From Oscillatoria princeps RMCB-10 (GTDB lineage Bacteria; Cyanobacteriota; Cyanobacteriia; Cyanobacteriales; Oscillatoriaceae), in contig JAHHHT010000036.1 of NCBI GenBank assembly GCA_019359235.1, positions 1 through 24,244 on the forward strand: DNA of 24,244 bases, read 5' to 3'. The position numbers and the translations under genes are program-made. Below are positions 3,164 to 18,721 of this stretch, one piece after another (position 1 is the first letter of the stretch; each line of letters opens with the position of its first letter). The notes beneath the pieces are model-generated. The model was not told where the DNA came from. It was given only the letters and a program-made list of their open reading frames with translations, and searched no databases.

Positions 3164-4582
3164 ATGCCGCAAACCGCGCAAGAAGTCTTGCAGCTAATCC
3201 AAGAGCAAGATATAAAAATCGTAGACCTGAAATTTATCGACACGCCAGGGATCTGGCAGCACTGCTCGTTCTACCGCGACCTGATTGACGAGAGTGCCTT
3301 CGACGAGGGCGTGCCTTTCGACGGTTCCAGCATTCGGGGCTGGAAAGCCATCAACGAATCAGACATGTCAATGGTGCCCGATCCGACCACAGCTTGGATC
3401 GACCCGTTCATGAAAGAGAAGACCTTGAGCATGATCTGCAGCATCAAGGAACCGCGCACCAACGAGTGGTACAGCCGCGATCCGCGCACGATTGCTCAGA
3501 AGTCGATCGACTACCTGATTTCCACCGGCATTGGCGACACGGCTTTCATTGGCCCAGAAGCGGAGTTCTTCATCTTTGATGATGTCCGGTTTGACCAAAC
3601 CCAGAACACGGGCTATTACTATGTAGACTCAGTGGAAGGTCGCTGGAACTCCGGTAAAGAGGAAAAGCCAAACCTGGGTTACAAACCCCGCTACAAGGAA
3701 GGTTACTTCCCGGTTGCGCCAACGGACACGCAGCAGGACATCCGCACGGAGATGCTGCTGACGATGGCGGAATGCGGCGTCCCCATTGAAAAGCACCACC
3801 ACGAAGTGGCCACGGGCGGGCAGAACGAGCTGGGCTTCCGGTTTGACACTCTGGTGAAGGCCGCTGACTACCTGATGACTTATAAGTATGTCATCAAGAA
3901 CGTTGCCAAGAAGTACGGCAAAACCGTCACCTTCATGCCGAAACCGCTGTTTAACGACAACGGTTCTGGGATGCACACCCACCAGTCGATCTGGAAGGAT
4001 GGCCAACCCCTGTTCTGGGGCGATGGCTACGCCAACCTGAGCAAGACGGCGCTGCATTATATCGGCGGCTTGCTCAAGCACGCACCGGCGCTGCTGGCGC
4101 TCACCAACCCCACCACCAATTCCTACAAGCGGCTGGTTCCCGGGTTTGAAGCGCCGGTGAACTTGGCCTACTCCCAAGGCAACCGCTCAGCTTCGATTCG
4201 CATCCCGCTGTCGGGTACAAATCCCAAGGCCAAGCGGCTAGAGTTCCGCTGTCCCGACGCTACTTGCAACCCATACTTGGCGTTTGCGGCGATGCTGTGT
4301 GCCGGTTTGGATGGCATCAAGAACGAGATCGATCCGGGCGAGTCTCTGGATGTGGACATCTACGACCTGACCCCAGAAGAACTGGCCAAGGTGCCGTCCA
4401 CTCCCGGCTCTCTGCTAGACGCTCTCAAGGCGCTGGAAGCGGATCACGAGTTCCTGCTTGCCGGTGGGGTGTTCACGGAAGACTTCCTGACAACCTGGAT
4501 TGAGTACAAGATTGACAACGAAGTCAACCCGATGCGGCTGCGCCCGCACCCCTACGAGTTTGCGCTCTATTATGATTGCTAA
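3164..4582 (+). CDS. glnA: Glutamine synthetase type I (GlnA).
   Basis: 472-aa ORF with hallmark GSI regions throughout ([75 protein letters not shown]). AAGGAG ribosome-binding site. Confidence 0.97.
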
Positions 4583-4609
4583 TCTAGGCAATTCGTGAAC
4601 TTCTTAAGG

Positions 4610-4636
4610 ACGCCACCCTGCGGGGTGGCGTTTTTT
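4610..4636 (+). terminator. Rho-independent terminator of glnA: ACGCCACCC-TGCG-GGGTGGCGT followed by TTTTTT.
   Basis: A 9-bp GC-rich stem plus a T6 run, 28 nt after the glnA stop. Confidence 0.8.
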
Positions 4637-4643
4637 GTGATAA

Positions 4644-4712
4644 TGGGGCATGGGGCATGGGGTATGGGGCATGGGGGATTGGGCATTGGGCATTGGGCAT
4701 TGGGCATTGGTT
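4644..4712. repeat. Heptamer tandem repeats GGGGCAT / GGGGTAT / GGGCATT (about 9 units).
   Basis: Directly visible. Same family as the 2775..2935 array. Confidence 0.8.
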
Positions 4713-4725
4713 ACACCTAAGTATT

Positions 4726-5092
4726 AGTAGGGTGCGTGACGCCGCCGCACCGGCACTACTTGTGCGGAATTATCTCTTGGCGTCACGCACCCTACTGTAA
4801 AATAGTAGGCGTCACGCACCGCACGGCTGGACTTACTGGGGTGCGTGACGCCCCAACATAAGCGCACTATTTGTGCGGAATTATCTCTTGGCGGAAGGCA
4901 CCCTACTGTAAAATAGTGCGTGACGCCGCCGCACCGGCACTACTTGTGCGGAATTATCTCTTGGCATCACGCACCCTACTGTAAAATAGTAGGCGTCACG
5001 CACCGCACAGCTGGACTTACTGGGGTGCGTGACGCCGCCGCACAGGCGCACTACTTGTGCGGAATTATCTCTTGGCGTCACGCACCCTACTG
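4726..5092. repeat. Composite palindromic repeat array. Alternating modules A (AGTAGGGTGCGTGACGCC ... GGCGTCACGCACCCTACT around an inner CCGCAC..GTGCGG hairpin) and B (GGCGTCACGCACC ... GGTGCGTGACGCC), about 2.5 copies of a roughly 135-bp A+B unit.
   Basis: Nested inverted repeats and direct repetition were read from the sequence. The track ORF 4881..5081 (minus) lies wholly inside the array and is judged spurious. Confidence 0.85.
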
Positions 5093-5131
5093 CTGTTAAA
5101 ATTTGCTTCTCCCCCCAAAAGAGGAAAAATA

Positions 5132-5587
5132 ATGATGACCTCCGAAATTTTGAAAATCAATAGTCCTAAAGTAGTTCATGAAATCATTGACGGTGAAGTC
5201 GTAATTGTCCATCTGTTGAAAGGGCATTATTATAGCCTGGTCAAAACAGGGGCGGATATTTGGAGCGGAATTGAAAGAGGCATTTCTAGGGAGCGGATTC
5301 TGGAAGAGATGGTGAGCCGGTACGATGGCGATCCGGCAGATATTGAAAAGGCGGTAAACAATATGATAGAACAGTTGCAGGAGGAGGAACTGATCGCTGT
5401 CGCACAGACAGAGGAATCGGGAACTGCAGCCGCCGGCGCAATCGAAGCGAAGGCCAATCCAGAAAAGCTTAGCTTTGAGCCACCAAAGTTAGATAAGTAC
5501 ACGGATATGGAAGATTTGCTGCTGTTAGATCCCATCCATGAAGTTGATGAAACAGGCTGGCCCAATGTCAAGCCGGCGGGTGTGTGA
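5132..5587 (+). CDS. PqqD-family peptide chaperone / RiPP recognition element (RRE), with a roughly 60-aa acidic C-terminal extension.
   Basis: PKVVHEIIDGEVVIVHLLKGHYYSLVKTGADIWSGIERGISRERILEEMVSRYDGDPADIEKAVNNMIEQLQEEELI matches the PqqD / lasso B1 pattern (xxDGExVLLxxxxGxYYxLNxTGAxIWxLLxGxxxxxEIxxxLxxxYxxDxxxxxxDVxxFLxxLxxxGLI). The start was moved to the ATGATG at 5132, which has an AAGAGGA ribosome-binding site. The track start at 5057 lies inside the repeat array. Confidence 0.75.
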   Translation: MMTSEILKINSPKVVHEIIDGEVVIVHLLKGHYYSLVKTGADIWSGIERGISRERILEEMVSRYDGDPADIEKAVNNMIEQLQEEELIAVAQTEESGTAAAGAIEAKANPEKLSFEPPKLDKYTDMEDLLLLDPIHEVDETGWPNVKPAGV

Positions 5588-6678
5588 AAAGACTGATGAT
5601 AAACAAATTATTGCAGCCGGATATGGCAGCCAAGAATGCTATAATGGAGCCGCTGGAGTTTTTCGATGCGGTTTATCAAAAGTACGAAAAAGCTGAAGCT
5701 GCTGGCGGGGGGTGTGTTGAGCGTTATTATTGTATAGCCGGTTTTGCAGTTCGGTTGCGTTTTGCCGGAGGGGCGCTGCTACCATATATCACACCGGCTT
5801 TAGCGCACTTGGCGACAGAACCTGTTGGGGAGCCGGTGCTGACTGTGTGTTTGTGGGACAGTGACTCTACGAACACGGCAATGCCGCCGCCGCCTTGGCA
5901 AGCGGATGATTATCGAGATCGCGGGGAAATTCGAGGGTTCATCAACGAGCGAATTCAGACGATTTTCCAAGTAGGAGTGAATGCGCTGTCGCTTTTGGAC
6001 AGAGAGCGGAATTTGGGTATATACTGGGTTAAGACTGCCAAACAGATTCCCTACTATGAAAGTAGCGCTCCTCTGCGGGCAATTTTTCACTTGTGGATGA
6101 GTCAGCGGGGAATCCAACTGATTCATGCCGGTGCGGTGGGACTTCCCAGTGGGGGGGTGTTGCTGGTGGGAAAGGGGGGTTCGGGCAAATCGACCACAGC
6201 TCTAGCTTGTCTGAATTCCGAGCTTTTCTATGCTAGCGATGATTACTGTTTGCTGGCGCACCACCCCACCCCAACGGTTTTCAGTATTTACAGCACCGGC
6301 AAGAAAAATGCGGATGATGTGGGAAGATTGCCGTTTATGGTTTCACATATCAGCAATCCTGACCGGCTCGGTACAGAAAAAGCGGTTTATTTTTTGAGCG
6401 AGAGTTTTCCGGACAAACTTTTGCCAAGTTTTCCGCTCAGGGCAATTTTGATACCGCGCATTAGTGGGGGGAGAGAGACGGCATTGAAACCGGCATCGCC
6501 GGCTGCCGGTCTGGTGGCGCTGGCTCCGAGTACAATATTTCAATTGCCAGGTGCGGGGAAAGAGGCGTTTCAGACAATGGGACAACTTGTCAGGCAGGTT
6601 CCTTGCTATCAGCTGAACTTGGGCACTGACACCGGGCAAATTCCTGAGGTGATTTTAGAATTATTAGCGGATAATTAA
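5584..6678 (+). CDS. HPr kinase/phosphorylase-related kinase (HprK C-terminal-domain-like with a P-loop), of the kind seen as a RiPP or lasso-peptide tailoring kinase.
   Basis: GVLLVGKGGSGKSTTALACLNSELFYASDDYCLL parallels the HprK [30 protein letters not shown] core. The GTG start overlaps the upstream stop (GTGA), which suggests translational coupling with the RRE gene. Confidence 0.7.
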   Translation: MKRLMINKLLQPDMAAKNAIMEPLEFFDAVYQKYEKAEAAGGGCVERYYCIAGFAVRLRFAGGALLPYITPALAHLATEPVGEPVLTVCLWDSDSTNTAMPPPPWQADDYRDRGEIRGFINERIQTIFQVGVNALSLLDRERNLGIYWVKTAKQIPYYESSAPLRAIFHLWMSQRGIQLIHAGAVGLPSGGVLLVGKGGSGKSTTALACLNSELFYASDDYCLLAHHPTPTVFSIYSTGKKNADDVGRLPFMVSHISNPDRLGTEKAVYFLSESFPDKLLPSFPLRAILIPRISGGRETALKPASPAAGLVALAPSTIFQLPGAGKEAFQTMGQLVRQVPCYQLNLGTDTGQIPEVILELLADN

Positions 6679-6681
6679 GCC

Positions 6682-7458
6682 ATGCAATCTGACCAATTCT
6701 TTGTGAGCGTTATTATCCCCGTGTACAATGGAGAAGCTTTTTTGGCAGAAGCTGTTGAGAGTGTGCGGCAGCTTAATTACCATCCTCTAGAAATTCTCAT
6801 TGTAGACGATGGCTCGACAGATGGCACTGCCGTAATTGCCAAAAACTTCCAGGGGGATGTCCGCTATGTGTGGCAATCTAATAGTGGGCCATCTGCTGCC
6901 CGCAATACGGGACTGAAGATGGCAAGGGGGAACATTATCGCTTTTTTGGATGCGGACGATTTGTGGCCAAACAATAAATTAGAAATTCAGCTGGCGTGCT
7001 TGGCTGCAAATCCATCGGTCGAAATTGTCGGGGGGTACATACAGTATATGCGGCGCTCGGAGAGCGCTACAGACACACAATTATTGGTTGAATTTGCCGA
7101 ACCTATTGTTTCTTTTAACTTGGGGGGTGCGATTTTTAGGAGGCCGGTGTTTGACAGAATAGGCTTGTTTGACGAGAAGCTGCGTTACAGTGAGGATGTT
7201 GACTGGTTTATGCGAGCTTGGGAGAAGGGGGTTTCAATGCTTGTGTTGAAGCAGGTGACGCTGTTTTATCGAAGACACCTGGACAGCATGACTTATGGAA
7301 CCAATTTACACGATCTTAATTTCATTAAGATCCTCAAAAAATCTCTGGACCGGCGTCGGCAACAAAGCAATGGCTCAGCCGCGCCACTTCCTGGATTTTC
7401 CTATGTGGATGAACCTACAGGCAAGCCTACTGTAAACCACTTTGAAGAGGGATTATAA
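6682..7458 (+). CDS. Glycosyltransferase family 2 (short GT-A fold), paralog 1.
   Basis: VSVIIPVYNGEAFLAEAVESV..LEILIVDDGSTDGT...AARNTG...FLDADDLWPNNKL is the classic GT2 N-terminal domain with a DxD motif. Confidence 0.85.
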   Translation: MQSDQFFVSVIIPVYNGEAFLAEAVESVRQLNYHPLEILIVDDGSTDGTAVIAKNFQGDVRYVWQSNSGPSAARNTGLKMARGNIIAFLDADDLWPNNKLEIQLACLAANPSVEIVGGYIQYMRRSESATDTQLLVEFAEPIVSFNLGGAIFRRPVFDRIGLFDEKLRYSEDVDWFMRAWEKGVSMLVLKQVTLFYRRHLDSMTYGTNLHDLNFIKILKKSLDRRRQQSNGSAAPLPGFSYVDEPTGKPTVNHFEEGL

Positions 7459-7460
7459 CT

Positions 7461-8150
7461 GTGGAGAGACTGTTAGTGAGTGTTATTGTTCCTGTTTATA
7501 ATGGCGAGCGCTATTTATCGGCGGCGCTGGAAAGTATTTTCGCTCAGGACTATCATCCCTTCGAGGTGATTGTTGTGGATGATGGTTCGGTTGATAGCAC
7601 TGCGGCCATCGCCAAATCCTTCAAATCAGTTCAATATATCTACCAAACTAATCAGGGGATTGCTAATGCTATGAACAGGGGGATCGATGCTGCCGGTGGA
7701 GAATTGATTGCTTTTCTCGATCAAGATGACCTGTGGACACCCAACAAATTGAGGCTTCAGGTTGATTACTTGGTCAATCACCCAGAAATCCAATACGCGA
7801 TCTCCCTGGTGAAGTTTTTTCTGGAACCGGGGTGTTCTGTCCCGCCCGGCTTCAAAACAGAATTATTAGAGAAAGAACAGGTGGGTCGCATCCCCGGCGC
7901 TTTAATGGCCCGCAAATCTTTGTTGGCGCTAATCGGTCAATTTAATGCGGAGTTTACCATTGCATCCGATGCGGACTGGTTCGCCAGAGCTAAAGATAGT
8001 AACATACCTTGGGCTGTGATTCCTGAAGTTTTGCTTCACAAGCGCGTCCACAACACAAATGTTTCATCAAACGCACGATTGAACAACAAGGAGCTGTTGG
8101 CTTTACTGAGAAAATCAATTGCTCGCCAACAAAAATCCACTCAAGAATAG
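7461..8150 (+). CDS. Glycosyltransferase family 2, paralog 2.
   Basis: VSVIVPVYNGERYLSAALESI..FEVIVVDDGSVDSTA...FLDQDDLWTPNKL. Collinear with paralogs 1 and 3. It starts 2 nt after the previous stop. Confidence 0.85.
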   Translation: MERLLVSVIVPVYNGERYLSAALESIFAQDYHPFEVIVVDDGSVDSTAAIAKSFKSVQYIYQTNQGIANAMNRGIDAAGGELIAFLDQDDLWTPNKLRLQVDYLVNHPEIQYAISLVKFFLEPGCSVPPGFKTELLEKEQVGRIPGALMARKSLLALIGQFNAEFTIASDADWFARAKDSNIPWAVIPEVLLHKRVHNTNVSSNARLNNKELLALLRKSIARQQKSTQE

Positions 8151-8167
8151 CAAAAGGAATCCTCAAG

Positions 8168-8866
8168 ATGGGAAATCAGCCCCTAGTGAGCGCTATCGTA
8201 CCTGTGCGCAATTGCGAGCGCTATTTGGCAGAAGCGCTGGACAGTGCGCTGGCGCAGACTTACTTGCCGGTGGAGATATTTGTTGTGGATGACGGTTCAG
8301 CGGATGGGAGTGGGGAGATTGCCAAACGCTATGTGCCGGCTGTGCGGTATATCTTTCAAACCAGTGCCGGCGCTGCAGCAGCCAGAAACCGGGCAATTCC
8401 ACTAGCTAAGGGTGACTTTTTCGCTTTTCTGGATGCTGATGATGTCTGGCTTCCGGATAAACTTGCCCTGCAAATGGCAGCGTTTGATGCCGAACCAGAC
8501 CTTGACATTGTTACCGGCCATGTGCAACAATTTATCAGTCCAGAGTTAGACGCTGAAGGGATGAAAGGAGTTTATTGCCCACCTGAACCCATGCCAGGTT
8601 ATATCCCTACTGCTATACTCGTCAAGCGCGAAGCCTTTTTTCGGATTGGCTTGTTTGATGAAAATTATCCTGCCGAATATCAAATGGAATTTATCAACTG
8701 GTGTGCGCGTGCTGTGGAGCTTGGTTTGCATATAAAGGTGCTTCCCGAGTTAGTCGCGCGGCGGCGCTTGCACCAAACAAACCAGGAGCGCTCTCGCAAC
8801 TCGAGGCTGGAAATTGTGCGCATCCTGAAAGCTTCTCTCGACCGGCGGCGAGGTGAAAATGGGTAA
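8168..8866 (+). CDS. Glycosyltransferase family 2, paralog 3.
   Basis: VSAIVPVRNCERYLAEALDSA..VEIFVVDDGSADGS...AARNRAI..FLDADDVWLPDKL. Confidence 0.85.
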   Translation: MGNQPLVSAIVPVRNCERYLAEALDSALAQTYLPVEIFVVDDGSADGSGEIAKRYVPAVRYIFQTSAGAAAARNRAIPLAKGDFFAFLDADDVWLPDKLALQMAAFDAEPDLDIVTGHVQQFISPELDAEGMKGVYCPPEPMPGYIPTAILVKREAFFRIGLFDENYPAEYQMEFINWCARAVELGLHIKVLPELVARRRLHQTNQERSRNSRLEIVRILKASLDRRRGENG

Positions 8867-8898
8867 AAAATCGGGTTTCTTAAAGAAACCCGGTTTTT
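8865..8898 (+). terminator. Palindromic hairpin AAAAAATCGGGTTTCTT-A-AAGAAACCCGGTTTTT (10-bp stem flanked by an A-run and a T-run). It has a bidirectional terminator-like form and sits inside the operon between GT2 paralog 3 and the ABC gene.
   Basis: The perfect palindrome was read at 8872..8892. A T5 run lies downstream. It belongs to the dispersed GAAACCCGGTTTC family. Confidence 0.55.
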
Positions 8899-8929
8899 AG
8901 CCTCATGTGAAGGAAGTAAAGAACCGACA

Positions 8930-10588
8930 ATGAACTTACCAGCTTGGCGTTACTACAGTCAATTATACAAAGATTATTACCACTTGCTGTTCTGGAGCGT
9001 TGCAGCCTCCCTGGGGCAATCTGCGGTTTTCTTCCCCATTGCTTTGCTGGTACGCCATGTATTTGATGTCGCAATACCCACCGGCAACTTATCGCTTTTG
9101 GCGCTCACAGGAGTGGCGGTTCTTGTCCTGTACGCCGGCAACATGGCGCTGGCGCTCTGGACGAGATACATTATCCTTAAAATTACTAAAATTGCCATCC
9201 AGCGGCTGAGGGTTGAACTATTAAATAAGTTTTATGCTTTTTCGCGCTCCTACTACAGTCAAGCCGATACGAGCCAGTTGCACACGATTGCCGTTCAAGA
9301 TACCCTGCGCCTGGACATGATGAGCAATGCGCTAGTTGCCCAAGTCATCCCGGCACTGCTCATCTGTGCTGTTTTGAGCGCCGTGTTAATCGCAGTGAAT
9401 TGGTTTTTGTTTCTAGTGCTGGCGCTCGTCGCTCCTCTCATTTATCTGTTGAGCAAAAATCTGGGTAAAAAAGTAAAGCATTGGCTAAAAGCCTATCACC
9501 GCACATTTGAAAAATTCAGCAAAGGGATGCTATTTGTCCTGCAAAATATGGAACTCACCCAAATCCAATCGGCGGAGGAATTTGAAAGGGTGAGGCAAGG
9601 TAAATTGCTGAATGATGAGCGATTGACAAGCAGTGCGATGGCTTGGCTCTATACGGCTTACGGTCTGGCGCAAACCTTTACCGTCGCAGCAGCAAGTGTC
9701 CTGCTTTTAATGGCTGGCGGCTGGGCGATATCCGCCGGCTACATGACCTTAGGAGAGATGGTATCCTTTTATGTAGCGGCCAACTTGATGAGAACTTATG
9801 CCAACACAATTTCGCAAGCCATCCCCCAAATTATAGACGGAAATGAATCTCTGAGTGTTTTGTACGAGCTGTTACAGGTGAGCGACACAAGACCTTATGC
9901 CGGCACTGAAAAAATTGGCTTTCAGGGGAAAATCACTCTCAGGAACGTGAGTTTTTCTTACAGCGACAGGAGGATACTGTCAAATGTCACGCTGTCAGTC
10001 AATCCGGGAGAGACTGTAGCGATTGTCGGGCGCAACGGTGCCGGCAAAAGCACGATTCTTTATCTTATCTTAGGCTTTTACCGGCCACAAGAAGGAGAGC
10101 TGTGGGCAGATGACTGTCCCTTCAGCACACTGGACATTGCGCATCTGCGCCGGCAAATAGGAGTCGTCATGCAAAAGCCGGCAATCTTTGCGGGGACAAT
10201 TTGGGAAAATATCACCTATGGTGCGCCAGATGTGAGTTGCGAAAGGGTGATTGAATCTGCTAAAATAGCCACAGCCCATGAATTTATCCACCGGCTCCCA
10301 GAAGGCTACGAAACCTGTGTGGGAGAAGGGGGAATGCTGCTATCCGGTGGACAGCGCCAGCGGATAGCCATCGCCCGCGCTCTTGTGCGCCAACCCAAGC
10401 TCCTCATCCTCGATGAGCCAACCAATCATCTGGACGAAGCTGCTGTGAGCCAGCTGATAAAAAATCTCAAAGGCATGGCGGAAGCCCCCGCTATTCTTAT
10501 AATAAGTCATAATAGGGATATTGTGCGGGAAGCCAAACATGTGTATACTGTAAAAGATGGATGTCTGGTGGAAACCCTTTGGGGATGA
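8930..10588 (+). CDS. ABC transporter, fused permease/ATP-binding exporter. It resembles type I exporters of the kind that export lasso peptides and bacteriocins, and it has no peptidase domain.
   Basis: 552 aa. The N-terminal half is hydrophobic and reads as transmembrane. Walker [13 protein letters not shown] signature LSGGQRQR, Walker B LLILDEPT. Confidence 0.9.
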
Positions 10589-10615
10589 AAAGCAGAGAGG
10601 ATTTATCCCCCTTCC

Positions 10616-10697
10616 GTAGGACACGTCTCGTGTCCAAATCCAGGCGTAGGACAGGCGAGACGCCTGTCCAGACGCAGGACACGTCTCGTGTCCAAAT
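10616..10697. repeat. Three consecutive short hairpins: GGACACG-TCT-CGTGTCC, GGACAGGCG-AGA-CGCCTGTCC, GGACACG-TCT-CGTGTCC.
   Basis: Inverted repeats read at 10619..10635, 10649..10669 and 10677..10693, between the ABC gene and the nucleotidyltransferase gene. The middle hairpin recurs at 20413 and 22861. Confidence 0.7.
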
Positions 10698-10720
10698 TAG
10701 AACAAAAAAAAGGAGGTACA

Positions 10721-11941
10721 ATGCAAGAGTGGCAAATGAATACAAAGGAAAATATGGGCGGCTACAAGCCGACTCACCAGCAAGGATTGCTCTTACGAGC
10801 TGCGCTTTTGCAAGGTGAAAACGCCCTCGCAGCTTGGGAGGAATGGAGAGCGGCTGTTGATATTCAACGTCTCGATGCTGGTTCCTATCGGTTACTGCCT
10901 TTATTGTATCGCAATTTGTCGCTTCATGGGGTAAATGACCCCCTGATGGCAAAATTTAAGGGAGTCTACCGGAACACCTGGTGCAAAAACCAACTCTCAT
11001 TTAAGAAAGTCTCAGCTGTGATGCGGGCTTTTCACGAGGCGGGGATTCAAACCATGCTCCTGAAAGGGGCGGCTTTGTCCTTAAATTATTACCGAGATTA
11101 TGGCCTCCGTCCCATGAGTGATTTTGACCTTATCGTCCCTACTGCAGACGCTTTACCAGCAATGAAGTTGTTGAGGGAATTGGGGTGGGAAACTTCTGTA
11201 GAAAGACCGGAAAGATATATAGATTTAACGCACGCCGCCGGAGGATTTTCTGATGAATACGGAACAAAAATGGATCTCCACTGGCATGTATTACACCAGT
11301 GCCTTCAAGAGAATGCTGACGAGGATTTCTGGAAGGGCGCGATATCTGTTAAAATAGATGATTTGTCAACCCATGTCTTAAACCCGACCGATCAGTTATT
11401 TCACGTCTGCGTGCATGGATGGCATGGGGATGTATTTCCGACAATTCGCTGGGTGGCTGACGCGATGACGGTGATTAACTCATCTCCAGATGCAATTGAT
11501 TGGCACCGGCTAGTCGCACAGGCTGAAAAAAGACAATTGGTTTTGCGGTTAAAAGATACACTGCCGATATTGCGCGACCTTTTGGACGCCCCAGTACCCC
11601 TATCGATTATACAAGATATCGAAAAGCTACCCATTGCAGCAATTGAGCGGCTCGAATATAAGAGTTCACCAGGCAGACTGATACGAGGATTCGGGAGTTT
11701 GCCAATGATATATACTTCTTATGTGAGGCGGAGTATGAATGATGGCAGTTTCAACCTTTTAGGTTTGGCAAGGCATCTGCAATATTACTTGGGGTTGGAA
11801 CACTTATGGCAGCTTCCCTTGGATGTGATTAAGCGGGGTATAAGAAGGATTTGGATTGACCTCTTAGGAGGAAAGTCTGCGCCAATTCCAACAAAACGGG
11901 CATTTCGCCAGGAGCGCGAAGCCAGTAAAACTTCAGTTTAG
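10721..11941 (+). CDS. Nucleotidyltransferase-family protein (NTP_transf_5 / lasso-cluster-associated nucleotidyltransferase-like).
   Basis: MLLKGAALSLNYYRDYGLRPMSDFDLIVP...LGWE is the signature region as I remember it for that family. The start was moved to the ATG at 10721, which has an AAGGAGG ribosome-binding site. The track GTG start at 10688 lies inside a hairpin. Confidence 0.6.
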   Translation: MQEWQMNTKENMGGYKPTHQQGLLLRAALLQGENALAAWEEWRAAVDIQRLDAGSYRLLPLLYRNLSLHGVNDPLMAKFKGVYRNTWCKNQLSFKKVSAVMRAFHEAGIQTMLLKGAALSLNYYRDYGLRPMSDFDLIVPTADALPAMKLLRELGWETSVERPERYIDLTHAAGGFSDEYGTKMDLHWHVLHQCLQENADEDFWKGAISVKIDDLSTHVLNPTDQLFHVCVHGWHGDVFPTIRWVADAMTVINSSPDAIDWHRLVAQAEKRQLVLRLKDTLPILRDLLDAPVPLSIIQDIEKLPIAAIERLEYKSSPGRLIRGFGSLPMIYTSYVRRSMNDGSFNLLGLARHLQYYLGLEHLWQLPLDVIKRGIRRIWIDLLGGKSAPIPTKRAFRQEREASKTSV

Positions 11942-12006
11942 TTGCAGTGGCGCATTCGCCGCACAATCGCAATTATGGAGTTTCTCAGTTGGATGAAATA
12001 TGGCCC

Positions 12007-12040
12007 AAAAACCCGGTTTCTTTAAGAAACCGGGTTTCTC
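12007..12040. repeat. Palindromic hairpin AAACCCGGTTTCTT-TA-AAGAAACCGGGTTT of the GAAACCCGGTTTC family, 65 nt after the nucleotidyltransferase stop.
   Basis: Inverted repeat read directly. An A-run lies upstream, and there is only a weak U-tract downstream on the plus strand. Confidence 0.6.
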
Positions 12041-12218
12041 ACTACCTCACTAATATGAGGAATGCTATAGGGCATTTTAATGAATAAATCATAGTCAAAT
12101 TAAATGCCTAACAGCCGGCAGCTAGGGGGGAGCTGTCTGCCGGCTTGGCAAACGCTACCTTTATGTGTTACAATTATTTACAGTAGACGCCATTGCTTAC
12201 ACAGACCCAGCCATTCTT

Positions 12219-13277
12219 ATGTCTGACACCTTAACAAAACTGGCATACCAGACTTTTCAACAGGGCAAAAGTTACTTCGGTCTGGCTCACAAAGCCTTAA
12301 GTTCCAACTTGCGGAACTTATTGTATCCTGCTAGCACTCCTCAGACTAAACCTATCGGCTCGGCTCTGATAGAACTCCTTCAACAAAGGAGCGCTCAGCT
12401 CCTGGAAACAGACTGGCTGGATGCTGAGCGGGGCGTGTATCCCACCAGCTTGCTCTTTGACAATCCTTGGGAAGACTTCTTTCGCTACTATCCCGTGGTT
12501 TGCCTGGATCTGCCGCCAATCTGGGAGCGGATTCAGCAGAAGAAATCTCAGGAATTTTCGCCAGAGATTGAGACGGAAGGCTATCCCAACTACTATTTGC
12601 AAAACTTCCACCACCAGACAAACGGCTACTTGAGCGACATGTCAGCCAATCTCTATGACTTGCAGGTGGAGCTTCTTTTTGGTGGCACCGCCGATCCCAT
12701 GCGGCGGCGAATCCTGGCTCCTCTAAAGCAAGGGCTGAATGCTTTTAGCTCAACTCCTCCCCACCAAATCCGGGTTCTAGATATAGCTTGCGGAACCGGG
12801 CGCAGCCTGAAATTAATCCGAGCTGCTCTCCCTAAAGCATCCCTATTTGGCACTGACTTGTCACCGGCTTACTTGCGCAAGGCAAATCAGCTGCTGTCGC
12901 AAAATCCAGGGGAATTGCCGCAACTCCTGCAGGCTAATGCAGAGGAACTGCCCTATAAAGATAGCTACTTCCACGCAGTCACGAGCGTTTTTCTCTTCCA
13001 CGAACTTCCGCCGGCGGCGCGTCAGAAGGTGATCCAGCAGTGCTTCCGAGTCACTCAGCCAGGGGGAGTCTTTATTATCTGTGACGCTATTCAGGTGAGC
13101 GATTCTCCGGAATTCATGCCAATGATGGAAAACTTCCCAGATATGTTCCACGAACCCTACTACAAGCATTATATCACAGATGACCTGACAGAACGTTTAG
13201 AAAAAGCCGGCTTCACGAATATTTCTACTGAAGTCCACTTGTTTAGCAAGTATTGGGTCGCTCACAAGCCGGCCTAA
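12219..13277 (+). CDS. Class I SAM-dependent methyltransferase (Methyltransf_11/25-like).
   Basis: VLDIACGTGRSLKLI (SAM motif I), with an acidic motif II region and YKDSYFHAVTSVFLFHELP downstream. The start was taken at the ATG at 12219. The track lists an alternative GTG at 12165. Confidence 0.8.
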   Translation: MSDTLTKLAYQTFQQGKSYFGLAHKALSSNLRNLLYPASTPQTKPIGSALIELLQQRSAQLLETDWLDAERGVYPTSLLFDNPWEDFFRYYPVVCLDLPPIWERIQQKKSQEFSPEIETEGYPNYYLQNFHHQTNGYLSDMSANLYDLQVELLFGGTADPMRRRILAPLKQGLNAFSSTPPHQIRVLDIACGTGRSLKLIRAALPKASLFGTDLSPAYLRKANQLLSQNPGELPQLLQANAEELPYKDSYFHAVTSVFLFHELPPAARQKVIQQCFRVTQPGGVFIICDAIQVSDSPEFMPMMENFPDMFHEPYYKHYITDDLTERLEKAGFTNISTEVHLFSKYWVAHKPA

Positions 13278-13282
13278 GTAGT

Positions 13283-13341
13283 GAGGGGGATTGGGGAGGG
13301 GGAACTTGTTTTTACTCATCTTTAATCCCCCTCACTCCTCA
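13283..13341. repeat. Hairpin AGTGAGGGGGATT ... AATCCCCCTCACT (13-bp stem, about 33-nt loop), immediately after the methyltransferase stop.
   Basis: Inverted repeat read directly. It may act as a terminator; the loop contains a TTTTT run. Confidence 0.5.
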
Positions 13342-13475
13342 AATTCAAAAGAGTGAGTGCCAGACCAGTTTTATAAACAATCGCCACAAGGGGCGACTGT
13401 GGGGAATCGGGCGCGGAACAGCTAGAATGATTCCAGAATCCATAAACAACCCAACACGAGGAACTAGAAATTTGT

Positions 13476-13976
13476 ATGATTAGCAACGAGCCGACTCCGC
13501 AAACGGTTTCCACTGAGAGCTTGTCAGCTGAAGATACAATCACCAGCGAGCAGGTCGAAGGCGCAACAGCAGTCAACCTTGTAGAAGAGATTGGAACAGT
13601 CATTACCAGTCTGGCGGTAGACCAAAAGGTGATGGGTGGCCAAAGCGAAGAAGGCCATTTTTGGAAATTTAAGTATGGCAGCGTTGAGGTGTTTGTGCAA
13701 CTCACCGGCACCAGCAATGAAGATACCTTGACGGTTTGGTCTTTTGTGCTGCAGCTGCCGGCTAAGAACGAACCGCAGTTAACCCGCAAGCTGCTGGAGA
13801 TGAACGCCACGTCAACTTTTGAGTCCCATTTCGCCATTGTTGAGGACAAGGTGGCGGTGATATCGAGCCGAACGGTTCTGGATATTTCTCCGGCAGAAAT
13901 CTCCAGAACCATTACCGTTGTGGCCACTATCGCGGACGAGAACGACGAAGCCCTGCAAGCTGAATTTGGGCAGTAG
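13476..13976 (+). CDS. Conserved hypothetical protein, YbjN-like ('putative sensory transduction regulator' fold).
   Basis: 166 aa, acidic. GHFWKFKYGSVEVFVQL...DTLTVWSFVLQLP...HFAIVEDKVAVISSRTVLD resembles the duplicated YbjN domain pattern. The overlapping minus-strand ORF 13322..13927 is S/T/C-rich and antisense-like. Confidence 0.5.
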   Translation: MISNEPTPQTVSTESLSAEDTITSEQVEGATAVNLVEEIGTVITSLAVDQKVMGGQSEEGHFWKFKYGSVEVFVQLTGTSNEDTLTVWSFVLQLPAKNEPQLTRKLLEMNATSTFESHFAIVEDKVAVISSRTVLDISPAEISRTITVVATIADENDEALQAEFGQ

Positions 13977-14012
13977 ACAGCGCCCCACTCCCGCCGCTAT
14001 CCCCAATGCCCT

Positions 14013-14765
14013 ATGCCCAGTTCCCAAAGTTGGCGTTTGATTCCCTTGCTGCAAGCGCCCGGTGATATGCAAATGGCTATCGACCTGTGGTTGCTAGAGC
14101 AGCACCGGCAGGCGTTGCACCCGCCGGCACTGCGGTTTTACACTTGGTCGCCACCGGCCATTTCCCTGGGCTACCACCAGCGCCGGTGGCCAGAATTCTG
14201 GCAGCACCTGACTTGGCAAGGAGTGCCGGTGGATCTGGTGCGGCGTCCCACCGGCGGGCGGGCTGTCCTGCACCAAGGGGATTTAACGTATGCGGTGGTT
14301 ACTTCCGGATTTACCGGCAGCCGCCTCCAAACCTATCAAGAGATTTGCCAATTCTTGATCCAAGGCTGGCGCTCCCTGGGCGTCGAGTTGGGCTGCGGTG
14401 AGGCGGGGCGGGGTTACATCCACAACCCCAGCTGTTTTGGCACCGCAACCGGCGCTGATCTAATTATCCCCAGCGGCGCTAAGCTGGCAGGCAGCGCCCA
14501 GCTGCGGCGCGGACCGGCAATTTTGCAGCACGGCTCAATGCCGCTGCTGCAAGATAGCCAGCTATTCGAGCGGGTGTTTGGCACAGCGCCCGTGCCGGTG
14601 GAGTTACCCTTATCCCCGCACGGAGACACCCTAATTCAAACCGTCACCGATGCTTTAATTGCCGCTTTCAAAGACAGCTTCGGCGTCGCACTGGTGGAGC
14701 AACCCCTGTCAGACGCCGAGTGGCAGGCCATCCTAGAGTTTAGATCCCTCATTCCGGCGATCTAG
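14013..14765 (+). CDS. Lipoate-protein ligase / octanoyltransferase family protein (BPL_LplA_LipB domain).
   Basis: WRLIPL.....MQMAIDLWLLE..., then RRPTGGRAVLHQGDLTYAV and the downstream GSAQ motif, match the LplA/LipB catalytic domain. Confidence 0.75.
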   Translation: MPSSQSWRLIPLLQAPGDMQMAIDLWLLEQHRQALHPPALRFYTWSPPAISLGYHQRRWPEFWQHLTWQGVPVDLVRRPTGGRAVLHQGDLTYAVVTSGFTGSRLQTYQEICQFLIQGWRSLGVELGCGEAGRGYIHNPSCFGTATGADLIIPSGAKLAGSAQLRRGPAILQHGSMPLLQDSQLFERVFGTAPVPVELPLSPHGDTLIQTVTDALIAAFKDSFGVALVEQPLSDAEWQAILEFRSLIPAI

Positions 14766-14778
14766 AGCGCCGGTGTTG

Positions 14779-15125
14779 AAATCTCAGAAACCGGGTTTCT
14801 TTTGGTTTTCCCTGCAACAAATTGATTTTTCCCGGGAAAGAAACCCGGTTTCTTCACCCCGCCAGAAACTCTCAGAAACCGGGTTTCTTTTGGTTTTCCC
14901 TGCAACAAATTGATTTTTCCCGGGAAAGAAACCCGGTTTCTTCACCCCGCCAGAAACTCTCAGAAACCGGGTTTCTTTTGGTTTTCCCTGCAACAAATTG
15001 ATTTTTCCCGGGAAAGAAACCCGGTTTCTTCACCCCGCCAGAAACTCTCAGAAACCGGGTTTCTTTTGGTTTTCCCTGCAACAAATTGGTCTTGATAGGC
15101 ATTGAAACCCGGTTTCTTCACCCCG
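14779..15125. repeat. Tandem array of an 88-bp unit (3 perfect copies plus a divergent fourth). Each unit is a long hairpin AGAAACCGGGTTTCTTT...AAAGAAACCCGGTTTCT.
   Basis: Exact 88-bp periodicity, with unit starts at 14787, 14875 and 14963. The track ORFs 14784..14996 and 14872..15102 are frame artefacts of the repeat. Confidence 0.9.
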
Positions 15126-15130
15126 GCACT

Positions 15131-16357
15131 CTAGGGAGCCTGCAGACTTAGGGCGTCAGCAGTTGCTTTGGCGATTGCCGGCAGCTGCAAACCGGGAGGG
15201 TAAGTGCCCTCAGACTTAATGCGCTTGATCTCCGCCTCAGGAATCCGCAGTTGCAGCTTTTGGCACAAGGCACGCACAATGTCGCCCCTGTCGGTGACAC
15301 CGGCAACGGCACCGGCTCTGGAGAGGACAGTAATCCGGGGTAATTTGTGGGTTTCCAGCTGATTAATCACTTCAACCAGAGGCGTATTTTCTTCAGCGGT
15401 GACGATCTCCCTCAGGGGGCGGACAATGCTGTGCAGCGTCTGAGTTTCCCAGAGACTGCGCTCTGCGAATCTGATGTCATCAGGGACAACCATGCCGCGA
15501 TAGCGACCCTCCGAAGCGGCGTAGTAGGGTCTTTCTGGCCCTGGCAAGTCTGCCAGCAGGTACTGGTCGGCAAACTGGCGCAGGGTCATGCCGGCATCCA
15601 CCACCCGAAACTCGCGGCTCATGGCATCAGCGGCGCTCAGCTGCACCAAGGCTTCTTGCAGATCGGTGAGCCGGTCGTAGGCGCTGGCATTGCGGGTGAC
15701 AAACCAGCCGAGCATGGCAATCCAGATGCCAGCCACACCGCTCTCACCCGCGAGCAGCGCGACTGCGATTCCGAAGCTGACTGCTATCGCTCCCAGGGTT
15801 TGCCCCGCCTTCGCCGCCCAGTGGACGCCGGCAAACCGGTCGCCGGTCAGCTTCCAGACTGCAGCTTTGACAATCTGCCCCCCATCGAGGGGCAACCCGG
15901 GAATCATGTTGAACAGGGCCAGCACCAGGTTGATTCTGGCCAGATCCGCTGTTACAACTTTCACCGGCTCCGGCGCGGGCAGCAGCAGCCCCAGCAAGCT
16001 CAGCAGGCCGAACAGGAGGAAACTGACCGCAGGGCCGGCGATCGCCACTTGAAACGCTTGGCCCGGTGTCTTGGATTCTTGGTCAATGGCAGCCACCCCA
16101 CCAAACAGAAATAGGGTGATGGAATTGACTTTGATGCCCTGAGATCGCGCCACTAAACTGTGACCCAGTTCGTGGAGCAACACCGAGCCAAAAAGCAGCA
16201 GGGCCATTCCCAACCCAGCGCTCCAAGCAACTGCAGGCCCCCATTTGGCGTAGTCGAACTGGTTCACTAAGGTGAGTGCGGCTAAGATAATGAACCAAGA
16301 AGAATCTATATAAAGGGGGATGCCAAACAGAGAGCCAATTCGCCAACTTGTCTGCAT
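15131..16357 (-). CDS. Site-2 protease family (peptidase M50) with tandem CBS domains.
   Basis: HELGHSLVA (HExxH) lies in a transmembrane region, with later transmembrane helices and a C-terminal CBS-like region. The upstream ribosome-binding site reads AAGGAAAA. Confidence 0.85.
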   Translation of the reverse strand: MQTSWRIGSLFGIPLYIDSSWFIILAALTLVNQFDYAKWGPAVAWSAGLGMALLLFGSVLLHELGHSLVARSQGIKVNSITLFLFGGVAAIDQESKTPGQAFQVAIAGPAVSFLLFGLLSLLGLLLPAPEPVKVVTADLARINLVLALFNMIPGLPLDGGQIVKAAVWKLTGDRFAGVHWAAKAGQTLGAIAVSFGIAVALLAGESGVAGIWIAMLGWFVTRNASAYDRLTDLQEALVQLSAADAMSREFRVVDAGMTLRQFADQYLLADLPGPERPYYAASEGRYRGMVVPDDIRFAERSLWETQTLHSIVRPLREIVTAEENTPLVEVINQLETHKLPRITVLSRAGAVAGVTDRGDIVRALCQKLQLRIPEAEIKRIKSEGTYPPGLQLPAIAKATADALSLQAP

Positions 16358-16591
16358 AAAATTTTCCTTGATTATCGCAGCTATTTATCGGCGCAAGTGG
16401 GACAGAAGCGAAATTTCGCGTCTCCACACTCTTTAATTCTACTCCCAAGTGCCAGTTGTTGATGGGGGACGGACAGGCCGACCCCTCCGGCGAGCGCCTC
16501 TCGACTTGACGCCAGCCAATCTAGTCCCCGACGCCGGCTTTTCGGGCGCTCCCGGGCTGAAACCCCACACAAACCCAGCCCTAGCAAGGTT

Positions 16592-16795
16592 CAAAGGCCC
16601 TTTTAGATTTTAGATTTTGGATTTTAGATTTTGGATTGCCAATTCGGCAACACCATCTATAAAAAGGAATAGACGAATCCTTTTTTAATTTTTAATTTTT
16701 AATTTTTAATTGATAAGCTGGCCTGCTAATGGTTAATGGTTAATGGCACACCCCTTTATTGCCAATTAACAATTAACCATTAGAAATTAGCTGTG
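16592..16795. repeat. Heptamer arrays TTTTAGA/TTTTGGA (x5), TTTTTAA (x4) and TAATGGT (x3), which with TGCCAATTAACAATTAACCATTAG form a long imperfect hairpin just past the psaK 3' end.
   Basis: Period-7 repeats and the inverted arrangement were read from the sequence. Confidence 0.8.
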
Positions 16796-16803
16796 CCAAA
16801 ATC

Positions 16804-18711: not shown

Positions 18712-18721
18712 TTTTAATAAT

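Follow-up and report, generated by a model that had tools for sequence, protein, structure and literature searches.

A tightly packed operon of seven genes, all on the forward strand, is inserted beside glnA at positions 5132 to 11941 of the analyzed window, a 24,244-nucleotide stretch of Oscillatoria princeps RMCB-10 DNA, and is foreign to the conserved neighborhood of glnA. The insertion is supported more strongly by synteny than by base composition. The best explanation as a whole, with a probability of about 0.7, is that the cassette was inserted beside glnA in an ancestor of the clade, likely by lateral transfer, that its GC3 is stable, and that it functions in peptide or protein tailoring. 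The features are listed in Table 1.

Table 1. Features of the cassette and its borders
Feature	Position	Strand	Remarks
glnA, glutamine synthetase type I	3164..4582	+	472-aa ORF; conserved left neighbor of cassette
glnA terminator, hairpin and T-run	4606..4634	+	Read from sequence; left edge, ancestral glnA-MTase spacer
Heptamer array GGGCATT/GGGGCAT	4646..4710		TRF: period 7, 9.3 copies
Hairpin-unit repeat, two 184-nt units; GGGTGCGTGACGCC arms form four hairpins	4720..5092		glnA-pqqD spacer; array 4732-5092
PqqD-family protein	5132..5587	+	Pfam PqqD, 6.7e-14; 100% identical to O. princeps RMCB-10 "PqqD family protein"
P-loop kinase, PEPCK/HprK fold ("serine kinase")	5596..6678	+	From M5 onward, 100% identity to O. 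princeps RMCB-10 protein MBW4497058.1
GT2 glycosyltransferase a	6682..7458	+	Pfam Glycos_transf_2, 4e-35
GT2 glycosyltransferase b	7461..8150	+	Pfam, 9e-34; allele replaced in some relatives
GT2 glycosyltransferase c	8168..8866	+	Pfam, 1.5e-33
GAAACCCGGTTT palindrome copy, dispersed	8872..8897		GT2c-ABC spacer inside cassette
MsbA/HepA-type ABC exporter, fused TMD-NBD half-transporter	8930..10588	+	Pfam ABC_membrane and ABC_tran
PF14907 (NTP_transf_5) nucleotidyltransferase	10721..11941	+	Pfam, 2.4e-41
GAAACCGGGTTTC palindrome	12008..12038		Dispersed host repeat
MTase promoter-like site, TTGGCA-18-TACAAT with TG	12145..12174	+	Right edge, ancestral glnA-MTase spacer
Class I SAM methyltransferase (MTase)	12219..13277	+	Pfam and synteny; conserved right neighbor of cassette

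The gene order TlyA-ApcB-like-glnA-MTase-YbjN-LplA/B-S2P-trpF is widely conserved in cyanobacteria, with the MTase gene directly 3' of glnA. The glnA protein was 78 to 93% identical to those of 80 cyanobacterial genomes, and the cassette genes were present at none of the 80 fetched cyanobacterial glnA loci. Whether glnA is normally followed by the methyltransferase gene at 12219 had been raised by the sequence-only reading. An MTase homologue was found within 1.5 kb after glnA at 21 of the 56 informative loci (those with at least 2.5 kb of downstream sequence), including the nearest nonclade relatives (L001 to L004, L006, and L007), in which the gap is 134 to 312 bp. The adjacency occurs in Oscillatoriales, Coleofasciculaceae, Nostocales, and Leptolyngbya-like genomes, where, with one exception, the two genes are separated by 126 to 890 bp. 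The spacer of L001 and L002 contains both the terminator and the promoter box, and in the window these same elements still border the cassette. The glnA 3' hairpin and T-run is also present in L090, the GTTACAAT box lies at an equal distance from the MTase ATG in L001, L002, and L081, and the MTase start is conserved in the relatives compared. The event would have placed about 7.5 kb (roughly 4640 to 12140) between the glnA terminator and the MTase promoter, in a gap of roughly 30 bp such as that of L001. No integrase, transposase, or other mobility genes, tRNA genes, or att-like direct repeats were found at the insertion, and no direct repeat of at least 10 nt is common to the left and right cassette junctions.

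Repeats do lie at 4646-4710, 4732-5092, and 12008-12038, where the cassette had been described as bracketed by them, but none of them marks the border of an island. Both the heptamers and the palindrome recur as dispersed repeats of the host, and most repeats around the cassette are ordinary for the genome. Similar heptamer arrays are located at 2784-2918, upstream of glnA, and the array at 4646-4710 also precedes pqqD in L081 and L090. The GAAACCGGGTTTC palindrome had 23 matches in the window versus 0.04 expected. One match falls within the cassette (8885), and eight positions that matched on both strands lie at 14787-15116. In L081, which shares the cassette, the position corresponding to 12008-12038 has no palindrome. 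Other tandem arrays in the window lie at 1-217, 2784-2918, 14778-15125, 16601-16711, and 18716-18802. The hairpin-unit repeat (RNA fold z-score of -10) is present at the same position in one copy in L081 and in two copies in L090 and L093 to L095, and it was not seen elsewhere among the fetched loci. The cassette spacers have been colonized by host repeats since the insertion.

The GC content of the cassette is 0.484, versus 0.546 in the rest of the window, and nonoverlapping 500-nt windows averaged 0.487 inside (n = 12) and 0.546 outside (n = 34; Mann-Whitney P = 1e-5). The proposed GC dip is thus present, although of the two spot counts offered for it only the value of 0.45 at 6721-6780 was reproduced, that at 3661-3720 being 0.55 instead of 0.57. 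Cassette codons also end in A or T more often, as claimed: GC3 was 0.46 to 0.53 in the seven cassette genes and 0.57 to 0.74 in the 13 other window genes, the two ranges being fully separate (U = 0, P = 1.3e-5), and typical values in this comparison within the 24-kb window were about 0.50 for the cassette and 0.64 for the flanking genes. The synonymous-codon heterogeneity of the cassette (chi2 = 240) exceeded the mean of 66 and the maximum of 130 from 300 core-versus-core splits. A two-change-point fit of raw GC placed the low-GC block at 5050-13750. Its left edge agrees with the 5.1 to 11.9 kb proposed, but the dip overshoots the cassette by 1.8 kb and covers the MTase and YbjN genes (GC, 0.50 to 0.51; GC3, 0.57 to 0.59). 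Both are conserved syntenic core genes, which composition alone would wrongly take in. In composition-normalized tetranucleotide usage the cassette was not distinct, with an r of 0.68 to 0.81 to the other thirds, versus 0.70 to 0.75 among the other thirds. The low GC is also not a fading foreign signature: polarized substitutions accumulated after three relatives diverged were balanced (380 AT>GC versus 378 GC>AT), with no drift toward host GC, and the window's own branch leans toward AT (57 versus 89 substitutions, summed). The lower GC3 is a stable property of the cassette.

There is a slightly less than even chance that the low GC is gene-intrinsic or expression-linked codon usage of weakly expressed accessory genes and not foreign, in which case composition would be uninformative on horizontal transfer. 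The balanced substitutions, the AT-leaning branch, the host-like tetranucleotide signature, and the lowish GC of the two core genes are all consistent with this. In addition, GC3 among the window genes peaks in glnA (0.74), for which high expression is expected, and the homologous cassettes of Laspinema (0.41 versus 0.53) and Coleofasciculus (0.39 versus 0.44) are likewise below their flanks in GC3. The cassette of L082, however, exceeds its flanks in GC (0.45 versus 0.38), indicating that low GC is not intrinsic to the cassette genes. Codon usage would account for the composition but leaves the synteny break unexplained, and it is compatible with an insertion.

The PqqD-family protein, for which an AF2 model was made, consists of an RRE domain (residues 1 to 91) and a C-terminal tail that is invariant, joined by a variable linker. 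Among NCBIfam models it matched the lasso PqqD chaperone best, with a value of 2.8e-14 that is below the cutoff of that model. The kinase has the Walker A motif GKGGSGKST, and its AF2 model (pLDDT, 91.7) matched ATP-PEPCK best in Foldseek (E = 1.8e-12), the fold match being to PEPCK and not specifically to HPrK/P. Weak, partial NCBIfam matches of the kinase were to HprK_rel_A (4e-9, 36 bits) and HprK_rel_B (1e-4, 21 bits), versus a cutoff of 200 bits, and its homologues have faint or weak PF27840 ScmC matches in the source database. In NCBIfam the ABC exporter matched the models for MsbA, HepA, and bacteriocin exporters without reaching any of their cutoffs, and the GT2s matched many polysaccharide glycosyltransferase models equally weakly. 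The nucleotidyltransferase likely starts at the ATG at 10721, after a GGAGG site. Based on these assignments, and with lower confidence, the RRE protein would recruit a peptide or protein substrate, which the kinase would phosphorylate; the GT2s and the nucleotidyltransferase would attach groups derived from sugars or nucleotides, and export of the product would fall to the MsbA-like pump.

It is possible, but rather unlikely, that the cassette is instead a surface-polysaccharide or glycolipid module, in which the three GT2s build a lipid-linked oligosaccharide that the pump flips, and the PqqD protein, kinase, and nucleotidyltransferase are regulators or sugar-activating enzymes. A deltaproteobacterial core module lies among LpxB/LpxK/KdtA, heptosyltransferase, Kdo-kinase, and MsbA genes, the Laspinema cassette is near a Wzy_C gene, and the GT2s match exopolysaccharide, teichuronic-acid, and O-antigen glycosyltransferase models, below cutoffs. 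Against such a module, the Pfam matches of the cassette include neither a priming phosphoglycosyl transferase nor Wzx/Wzy or Wzm/Wzt. Moreover, in the cassettes compared, the PqqD/RRE gene is invariably first and the kinase gene overlaps it or closely follows, and RRE-kinase pairing is a hallmark of peptide-modifying systems (PMC13381572).

Five close relatives (L081, L090, and L093 to L095), including Oscillatoria sp. Prado101, have the order glnA-cassette-MTase-YbjN at the same site, a finding that the sequence-only reading had held would speak against its island. Nucleotide identity to them was 90 to 97% in core genes and 88 to 93% in the cassette (about 88 to 97% overall). The insertion is therefore old and common to the clade, not recent or strain specific. 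It most likely dates to the common ancestor of a small clade of Oscillatoria, made up of O. princeps, Oscillatoria sp. Prado101, and metagenome bins related to them, and was followed by vertical inheritance. The cassette is mosaic, with identity to two relatives switching from gene to gene: GT2b shares 95.5% nucleotide identity with L081 and only 66% with L090/L094, and the nucleotidyltransferase gene shares 81% with L081 and 91% with L094. The cassettes of relatives contain extra Methyltransf_24 and Methyltransf_11 genes, absent in the window. Gene content has changed since the insertion through the absence of these two genes here and the swapping of GT2b, nucleotidyltransferase, PqqD, and GT2a alleles.

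Related cassettes, with a conserved core of PqqD/RRE, PEPCK/HprK-fold kinase, three GT2s, and PF14907 nucleotidyltransferase, are patchily distributed among cyanobacteria and other phyla. They occupy unrelated loci in Laspinema, Planktothrix, Coleofasciculus, and a JGI contig, lie within an LPS-core locus in a deltaproteobacterium (where a single 732-aa protein combines the three GT2s), and in one case are carried by a plasmid, the mobilizable Crinalium pCRI9333.04 (MOBP). The nearest out-of-clade cassette of the same architecture, ABC exporter included, is that of L082, whose kinase is 77% identical. Of the horizontally acquired island proposed earlier, the insertion is borne out by the synteny break; that it came from another organism, and did not move within the genome, is inferred from the distribution of cassettes, which occupy different loci in other hosts, extend to other phyla, and include one on a mobilizable plasmid. 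Acquisition was most likely by lateral transfer and recombination.

Relocation of an old set of cyanobacterial genes to the glnA site from another place in the same genome, without transfer between organisms, is improbable. In a rough neighbor-joining tree of the kinase, most identified cyanobacterial sequences grouped together, with one Thermodesulfobacteriota sequence among them and Geminocystis outside, so distant transfer, a cyanobacterial donor, and relocation inside the genome fit equally well. The host-like oligonucleotide signature also favors relocation, as does the rearrangement of the region downstream of glnA elsewhere (desaturase and TetR genes in L073; DUF928, cyclase, and MscS genes in L002). 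However, the L082 cassette has different neighbors and lies in host sequence of about 42% GC, a mobilizable plasmid bears a related cassette, and no native gene sampled in the 24-kb window has a GC3 as low as that of the cassette. Differential loss of a cassette ancestral at the glnA locus is very improbable, even though all five close relatives found have it at the same site and no mobility genes or insertion scars are seen, since it would demand many independent precise deletions, and it is opposed by the wide spread of the glnA-MTase adjacency (in the present sample apparently the basal state around the clade), the terminator and promoter box in the L001/L002 spacer, and the unrelated loci occupied in other hosts.

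Like horizontally transferred genomic islands and glycosylation cassettes, the cassette breaks a conserved gene order, has lower GC3 and shifted codon usage, occurs patchily at varied loci with a plasmid copy, and varies in glycosyltransferase and methyltransferase content, mosaic between relatives. It differs in being without an integrase, transposase, tRNA target, flanking direct repeats, or ongoing amelioration, in its host-like oligonucleotide signature, and in being common to the whole clade at about 90% nucleotide identity. With paeninodin-type lasso tailoring genes it shares the enzyme classes HprK-like kinase, nucleotidyltransferase, PqqD-like B1, and ABC exporter. The lasso cyclase (C), B2 protease, and precursor are all absent; therefore, it is not a lasso peptide cluster, and this assignment was rejected. 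HprK-related kinase A/B systems and SynChlorMet ScmC (TIGR04352, TIGR04355, and PF27840) have PqqD-linked gene contexts, and the cassette kinase matches them weakly or partially, but its scores are far below the curated cutoffs and radical-SAM partners are absent.

With lower confidence, the cassette resembles lasso and linear polyphosphorylated peptide (LPP) tailoring sets. The experimentally studied core set of Bacillota LPP clusters comprises an RRE protein, an HprK-like kinase that polyphosphorylates core Ser, an NTP transferase, as well as an MsbA-like exporter, and these clusters are frequently found in glycosyltransferase-rich loci (Popov et al. 2026, PMC13381572). The cassette differs from them in having neither an SpI-like leader peptidase nor a recognizable precursor gene with the YxxPxVLxHQxIxFETxxS motif, in the three GT2 genes of its conserved core, in the conserved C-terminal tail of its RRE protein, and in its hosts, which are cyanobacteria and other Gram-negative bacteria. 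If the functional reading is true, the cassette would be a cyanobacterial relative of the paeninodin-type lasso and LPP tailoring sets.

The seven-gene cassette (pqqD, a kinase gene, GT2a, GT2b, GT2c, an ABC exporter gene and NTP5) breaks a gene order that is conserved in relatives. A glnA-anchored scan with one genome per species gave 80 cyanobacterial loci, which were compared by tblastn with all window proteins. The order TlyA, ApcB-like, glnA, methyltransferase (MTase), YbjN, LplA/B, S2P-CBS, trpF was widely kept, and an MTase homologue was located within 1.5 kb of glnA in 21 of the 56 loci whose sequence reached 2.5 kb or more past glnA. Cassette genes were present in none of the 80 loci. 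In the closest genomes outside the clade (L001-L004, L006 and L007), the gap between glnA and the MTase gene was 134 to 312 bp, so that there the MTase gene follows glnA directly, the arrangement that the sequence-only reading had proposed to look for. The short spacer of two of these genomes, L001 and L002, contains the terminator hairpin of glnA and, before the MTase ATG, a GTTACAAT promoter box. The same terminator and promoter flank the cassette in the window, indicating that the segment of about 4640-12140, which comprises the cassette, its leader repeats and the trailing spacer, was inserted between them; in L001 the terminator-to-promoter gap is only about 30 bp. Together with the scan, this supports the proposed insertion adjoining glnA. 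Other lineages, too, vary in what lies downstream of glnA: a desaturase and a TetR gene are located between glnA and the MTase gene in locus L073, and DUF928, CHASE2 cyclase and MscS genes sit between MTase and YbjN in L002.

The GC content in a 500-nt sliding window was about 0.45-0.53 over about 4.75-13.75 kb, compared with about 0.51-0.64 on both sides. The cassette as a whole had a GC content of 0.484, and the remaining window 0.546. In independent 500-nt windows, the mean was 0.487 inside (12 windows) and 0.546 outside (34 windows; p = 1e-5). The GC3 ranges of the seven cassette genes (0.46-0.53) and the 13 other genes (0.57-0.74) were disjoint (U = 0, p = 1.3e-5), and the heterogeneity of synonymous codons (chi2 = 240) exceeded that of 300 random core-versus-core splits (mean 66, maximum 130). 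The claim that cassette codons end more often in A or T is thus confirmed. The spot counts behind the earlier claim were reproduced for 6721-6780 (0.45), but 3661-3720 gave 0.55 and not 57%. The cassette is therefore distinct in GC, GC3 and codon usage, but this distinctness did not extend to composition-normalised tetranucleotides, in which the cassette correlated with the other window thirds at r = 0.68-0.81 and those thirds with each other at 0.70-0.75. Moreover, the low-GC block placed by a two-change-point fit on raw GC takes in the MTase and YbjN genes. HIP1 (GCGATCGC) was not enriched. Apart from this block, GC drops clearly only in the gene-free spacer between S2P-CBS and trpF.

Low GC is a stable feature of the cassette. 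Substitutions polarised to single lineages (window, L081 and L094, the latter two being close relatives with the cassette) were balanced, with 380 AT>GC and 378 GC>AT, and those on the window's own branch were tilted to AT (57 versus 89). No amelioration toward host GC was seen in these three lineages, indicating that the low GC3 is being maintained. Across hosts, the cassette GC3 varied from 0.31 to 0.73 and broadly tracked the host GC3; it was mostly a little under that of the flanks, and over it in L082, a JGI contig with the ABC-containing architecture.

The kinase and PqqD proteins were 100% identical to Oscillatoria princeps RMCB-10 proteins, and the true start of the kinase is M5 of the 364-aa open reading frame. 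The cassette was found at the same site in five related contigs: L081 (Logan), L090, L093, L094 (JGI) and L095 (Oscillatoria sp. Prado101), the others besides Prado101 being metagenome bins; L090 was among the four loci from the JGI metagenome scan. The glnA gene was visible to the left of the cassette in L090 and L093-L095, and MTase-YbjN to the right in L081, L090 and L094. Nucleotide identity to the relatives was 90-97% for core genes and 88-93% for cassette genes. In the next tier of relatives (L001-L007), the cassette was absent from the glnA locus. The core MTase gene appears split or frameshifted into two open reading frames in L090 (12387-13499) and L094 (14086-15144), as a pseudogene or by an assembly error.

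The cassettes of the relatives differ in content. A Methyltransf_24 gene follows the kinase gene in relatives, and L090 and L093-L095 additionally carry a GT2 fragment, a gene for a 285-aa Methyltransf_11-like protein and a GT2b allele with 66% nucleotide identity. NTP5 was closer to L094 (91% identity) than to L081 (81%), whereas GT2b was closer to L081 (95.5%) than to L094 (66%). The best-matching relative thus changes gene by gene, indicating recombination within the cassette. The island is thus an old one with a mosaic interior, shared across the clade. The sequence-only reading had named the same cassette at the same locus in close relatives as evidence against its island; formally, L081, L090 and L093-L095 provide this evidence, but they refute the recency of the insertion and not the insertion itself. 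Composition alone misdrew the island, with a 1.8-kb overshoot into core genes and a recency that the relatives contradict, and synteny settled the question.

The repeat elements that were said to bracket the cassette are real but do not delimit it; apart from the hairpin-unit array, they are of dispersed types. Tandem arrays were present in 6 of about 14 long spacers. The GAAACCGGGTTTC palindrome had 23 matches in the window against 0.04 expected, one of them inside the cassette (at 8885), and the copy downstream of the cassette was missing at the corresponding site of L081, which has the same cassette. Extra copies occurred downstream of the MTase gene in L090. Heptamer microsatellites (GGGCATG, CCTAACC, GGGCATT) lie on both sides of glnA, and the contig end of L081 falls exactly within such an array. 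The spacer between the ABC and NTP5 genes carries a second family of short palindromic repeats within the cassette. The GAAACCSGGTTTC palindrome of the window was also found shortly downstream of glnA in the distant cyanobacterial loci L005 (an Oscillatoriaceae MAG), L011 (Prochloron) and L026 (Scytonema), which may point to a short repeat dispersed throughout the phylum or to a terminator motif.

The array directly upstream of pqqD consists of four strong hairpin units with 18-nt arms AGTAGGGTGCGTGACGCC (fold z = -10). Among the fetched DNA it was confined to the glnA-pqqD spacer, where relatives have one or two units. Neither Rfam families nor tRNA genes were detected in the window, indicating that the array is no known RNA. 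It could serve the operon as a cis-regulatory leader, or be a MITE-like element that was amplified locally.

Repeats, junction elements and composition features of the window, and occurrences of related sequences elsewhere
Feature	Position	Description
Cassette	5132-11941	seven genes, forward strand
glnA terminator	4606-4634	left of cassette
MTase promoter	12145-12174	TTGGCA-18-TACAAT; right of cassette
Low-GC block	5050-13750	two-change-point fit
Heptamer array	4646-4710	named in the sequence-only reading, confirmed present
Hairpin-unit array	4720-5092	184-nt unit x2 at 4732-5092, named in the sequence-only reading, confirmed present; directly upstream of pqqD
Palindrome	12008-12038	GAAACCGGGTTTC copy; named in the sequence-only reading, confirmed present
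Further tandem array	1-217	downstream of TlyA-like gene; perfect 26-nt array (TACGAACTTTTGGGCTGAAGCCCAAC, about 6 copies) together with 25-nt variants; short hairpin TTGGGCTGAAGCCCAA in every unit
Further tandem array	2784-2918	heptamer microsatellite, other side of glnA
Further tandem array	14778-15125	88-nt unit x4, 96% identity, between convergent LplA/B and S2P-CBS; two GAAACCGGGTTTC palindromes per unit, eight in all, both strands
Further tandem array	16601-16711	
Further tandem array	18716-18802	
S2P-CBS to trpF spacer	16358-17220	863 bp; GC about 0.45-0.49; TTTTAGA/TTTTTAA heptamer arrays
ABC-NTP5 spacer	10589-10720	GTAGGACACGTCTCGTGTCCAAAT x2 and GGACAGGCGAGACGCCTGTCC palindrome
GAAACCSGGTTTC palindrome, L005	11468	
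GAAACCSGGTTTC palindrome, L011	11120-11185	
GAAACCSGGTTTC palindrome, L026	2120-2239	
Laspinema olomoucense		cassette near Wzy_C gene
Planktothrix pseudagardhii		cassette between amylase genes
Coleofasciculus		cassette at a locus unrelated to the glnA site
L082, JGI contig		same architecture including ABC; other neighbours; flanks about 42% GC
Deltaproteobacterial MAG, L084/L085	11084-13282	three GT2s as one fused 732-aa triple-GT2 protein
Deltaproteobacterial module		inside lipid A/LPS-core locus: LpxB, LpxK, KdtA, heptosyltransferases, Kdo kinases
L096 (NC_019735.1)	5896-17248	rearranged cassette on the mobilizable (MOBP) 44-kb plasmid pCRI9333.04 of Crinalium epipsammum PCC 9333

More than 2,600 database sequences match the kinase family; they occur in cyanobacteria and, as far as the hits carry names, in Deltaproteobacteria, Nitrospirae, Chloroflexi (Ardenticatenaceae) and Thermodesulfobacteriota. 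The core conserved across hosts consists of PqqD, the kinase, three GT2s and PF14907, and its positions are unrelated. The cassette of plasmid pCRI9333.04 contains genes for PqqD, an NTP-transferase, an HPr kinase, an FkbM methyltransferase, two GT-A proteins, SDR, SMP-30, a TPR protein, a second NTP-transferase and an ABC exporter, with a group II intron alongside. Relocation within the genome is a possible route by which the cassette reached glnA; given its occurrence at unrelated loci and on a mobilizable plasmid, its origin is best explained by lateral transfer. In a rough neighbour-joining tree of the kinase, most identified cyanobacterial sequences grouped together, with one Thermodesulfobacteriota sequence inside and Geminocystis outside the group, which suggests that the donor was probably another cyanobacterium.

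The cassette shares with genomic islands the broken gene order, the deviant composition and homologues in unrelated contexts and on a mobile replicon. Unlike them, it lacks an integrase or transposase (no such mobility domains in the cassette proteins or the scanned window proteins), a tRNA target (no tRNA genes in the window) and flanking direct repeats (no target-site duplication or shared direct repeat of at least 10 nt between the two junctions), and it is not absent from close relatives. The insertion that had been proposed holds and transfer is its best explanation; hallmarks of mobility are missing, and the event is not recent. As a genomic island it is ordinary, as accessory glycosylation cassettes in conserved neighbourhoods are common.

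The seven genes are separated by spacers of 2-147 nt, and this tight packing is consistent with a single operon. The first gene encodes a PqqD-family protein with an RRE domain (Pfam PqqD, 6.7e-14), whose best NCBIfam match was the lasso PqqD chaperone model, under its cutoff. The three GT2 glycosyltransferases identified with Pfam and NCBIfam are soluble proteins of 229-258 aa, the exporter is a fused MsbA/HepA-type protein (ABC_membrane plus ABC_tran in Pfam), and NTP5 is a PF14907 nucleotidyltransferase (2.4e-41). The second gene had no Pfam match in the local library. In its product, a Walker A motif was present, and HprK-related kinases A and B were matched weakly. Both domains of the AF2 model (pLDDT 91.7) were covered by the match to ATP-dependent PEP carboxykinase (TM about 0.55, E = 1.8e-12), whose fold class HPrK/P shares. 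Assignment to HprK/P or to HprK-related kinase A or B was rejected, as all scores of the curated models were under the cutoffs (TIGR04352, 35.9 bits against 200; TIGR04355, 21.1 against 200; TIGR00679, 17.5 against 240) and the likeness ends at the fold class and the Walker A motif. Neither the kinase nor the PF14907 protein had a match in sequence searches of the PDB.

The RRE protein extends about 60 residues beyond plain PqqD, with a variable linker, disordered in the AF2 model, followed by a conserved tail (residues 111-147; consensus FExPxLxKYTDMEDLLLLDPIHEVDExGWP). In an alignment of 40 sequences from cyanobacteria and other phyla (the window protein and 39 of the 823 database matches), F115, T124-D-M, D133-P-I-H and G142-W-P were invariant, and the tail was kept from cyanobacteria to Chloroflexi and deltaproteobacteria. 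It starts with the FExPxL motif, which is predicted by AF2 to form beta-strands (pLDDT about 82). The RREs of lasso peptide and linear polyphosphorylated peptide (LPP) systems bind a [Y/W]xxPx[L/V/I] leader motif (PMC13381572), which FExPxL resembles. No other small gene was conserved among the cassettes examined; speculatively, the tail might for this reason act in cis as a leader-like ligand or even be the substrate.

As a working model, the RRE would guide a substrate peptide or protein to the tailoring enzymes for phosphorylation and glycosylation, and the product would then be exported. The main rival is a lipid-linked glycan pathway, which is favoured by the location of the cassette beside LPS genes in the deltaproteobacterium and beside Wzy_C in Laspinema. 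Polysaccharide loci of the Wzx/Wzy- or ABC-2-dependent type have a priming transferase, a flippase/polymerase or a Wzm/Wzt pair, whereas the cassette has none of these and only GT2s and an MsbA-type half-transporter. An improbable variant of RRE-guided tailoring is a RiPP-like system that does without a precursor because its RRE protein bears the substrate itself. The co-translated PEPCK/HprK-fold kinase would then phosphorylate the tail, for example at T124, and the three GT2s and the PF14907 enzyme would build a phospho-glycan on it, followed by export or transfer. If true, the cassette would represent a widespread and uncharacterised glycan pathway with a protein or peptide as primer.

No study of the cassette was found in the literature on SynChlorMet, PF14907 or cyanobacterial PqqD with HPr kinase. 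The RRE protein, the PEPCK/HprK-fold kinase, the triple GT2 and PF14907 apparently form a conserved, unstudied module, which in cyanobacteria may make an undescribed exported phospho-glyco product. The module also offers a route to the role of PF14907 NTP transferases.

In LPP clusters, polyphosphorylation of a core serine is the work of the kinase, and no role of the NTP transferase could be detected in a heterologous host (PMC13381572). The cassette shares with them a stand-alone RRE, a kinase of HprK-like type (P-loop, PEPCK/HprK fold), an NTP transferase, compared here as an enzyme class, and an MsbA-like exporter. In contrast, the SpI-like (SipW-type) leader peptidase is missing, and none of the seven cassette proteins has a peptidase domain. 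A six-frame regex scan of 4583-12218 did not detect the N-terminal LPP precursor motif YxxPxVLxHQxIxFETxxS, and no precursor peptide was recognisable in the repeat region and the spacers, where the small open reading frames are repeat-encoded. Lasso clusters differ from the cassette in having an Asn-synthetase-like cyclase (C) and a transglutaminase-like protease (B/B2). Lacking the SpI peptidase, the lasso cyclase and protease and a recognisable precursor, the cassette belongs to neither the LPP nor the lasso family. The module has its enzyme classes in common with the tailoring systems recently described for LPP and paeninodin, but neither precursor nor peptidase, and the cargo of the island is a modestly interesting, uncharacterised variant of the RRE/kinase/NTP-transferase peptide-tailoring systems. 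Its closest studied counterparts are the paeninodin-type lasso tailoring set and the LPP clusters of Bacillota.
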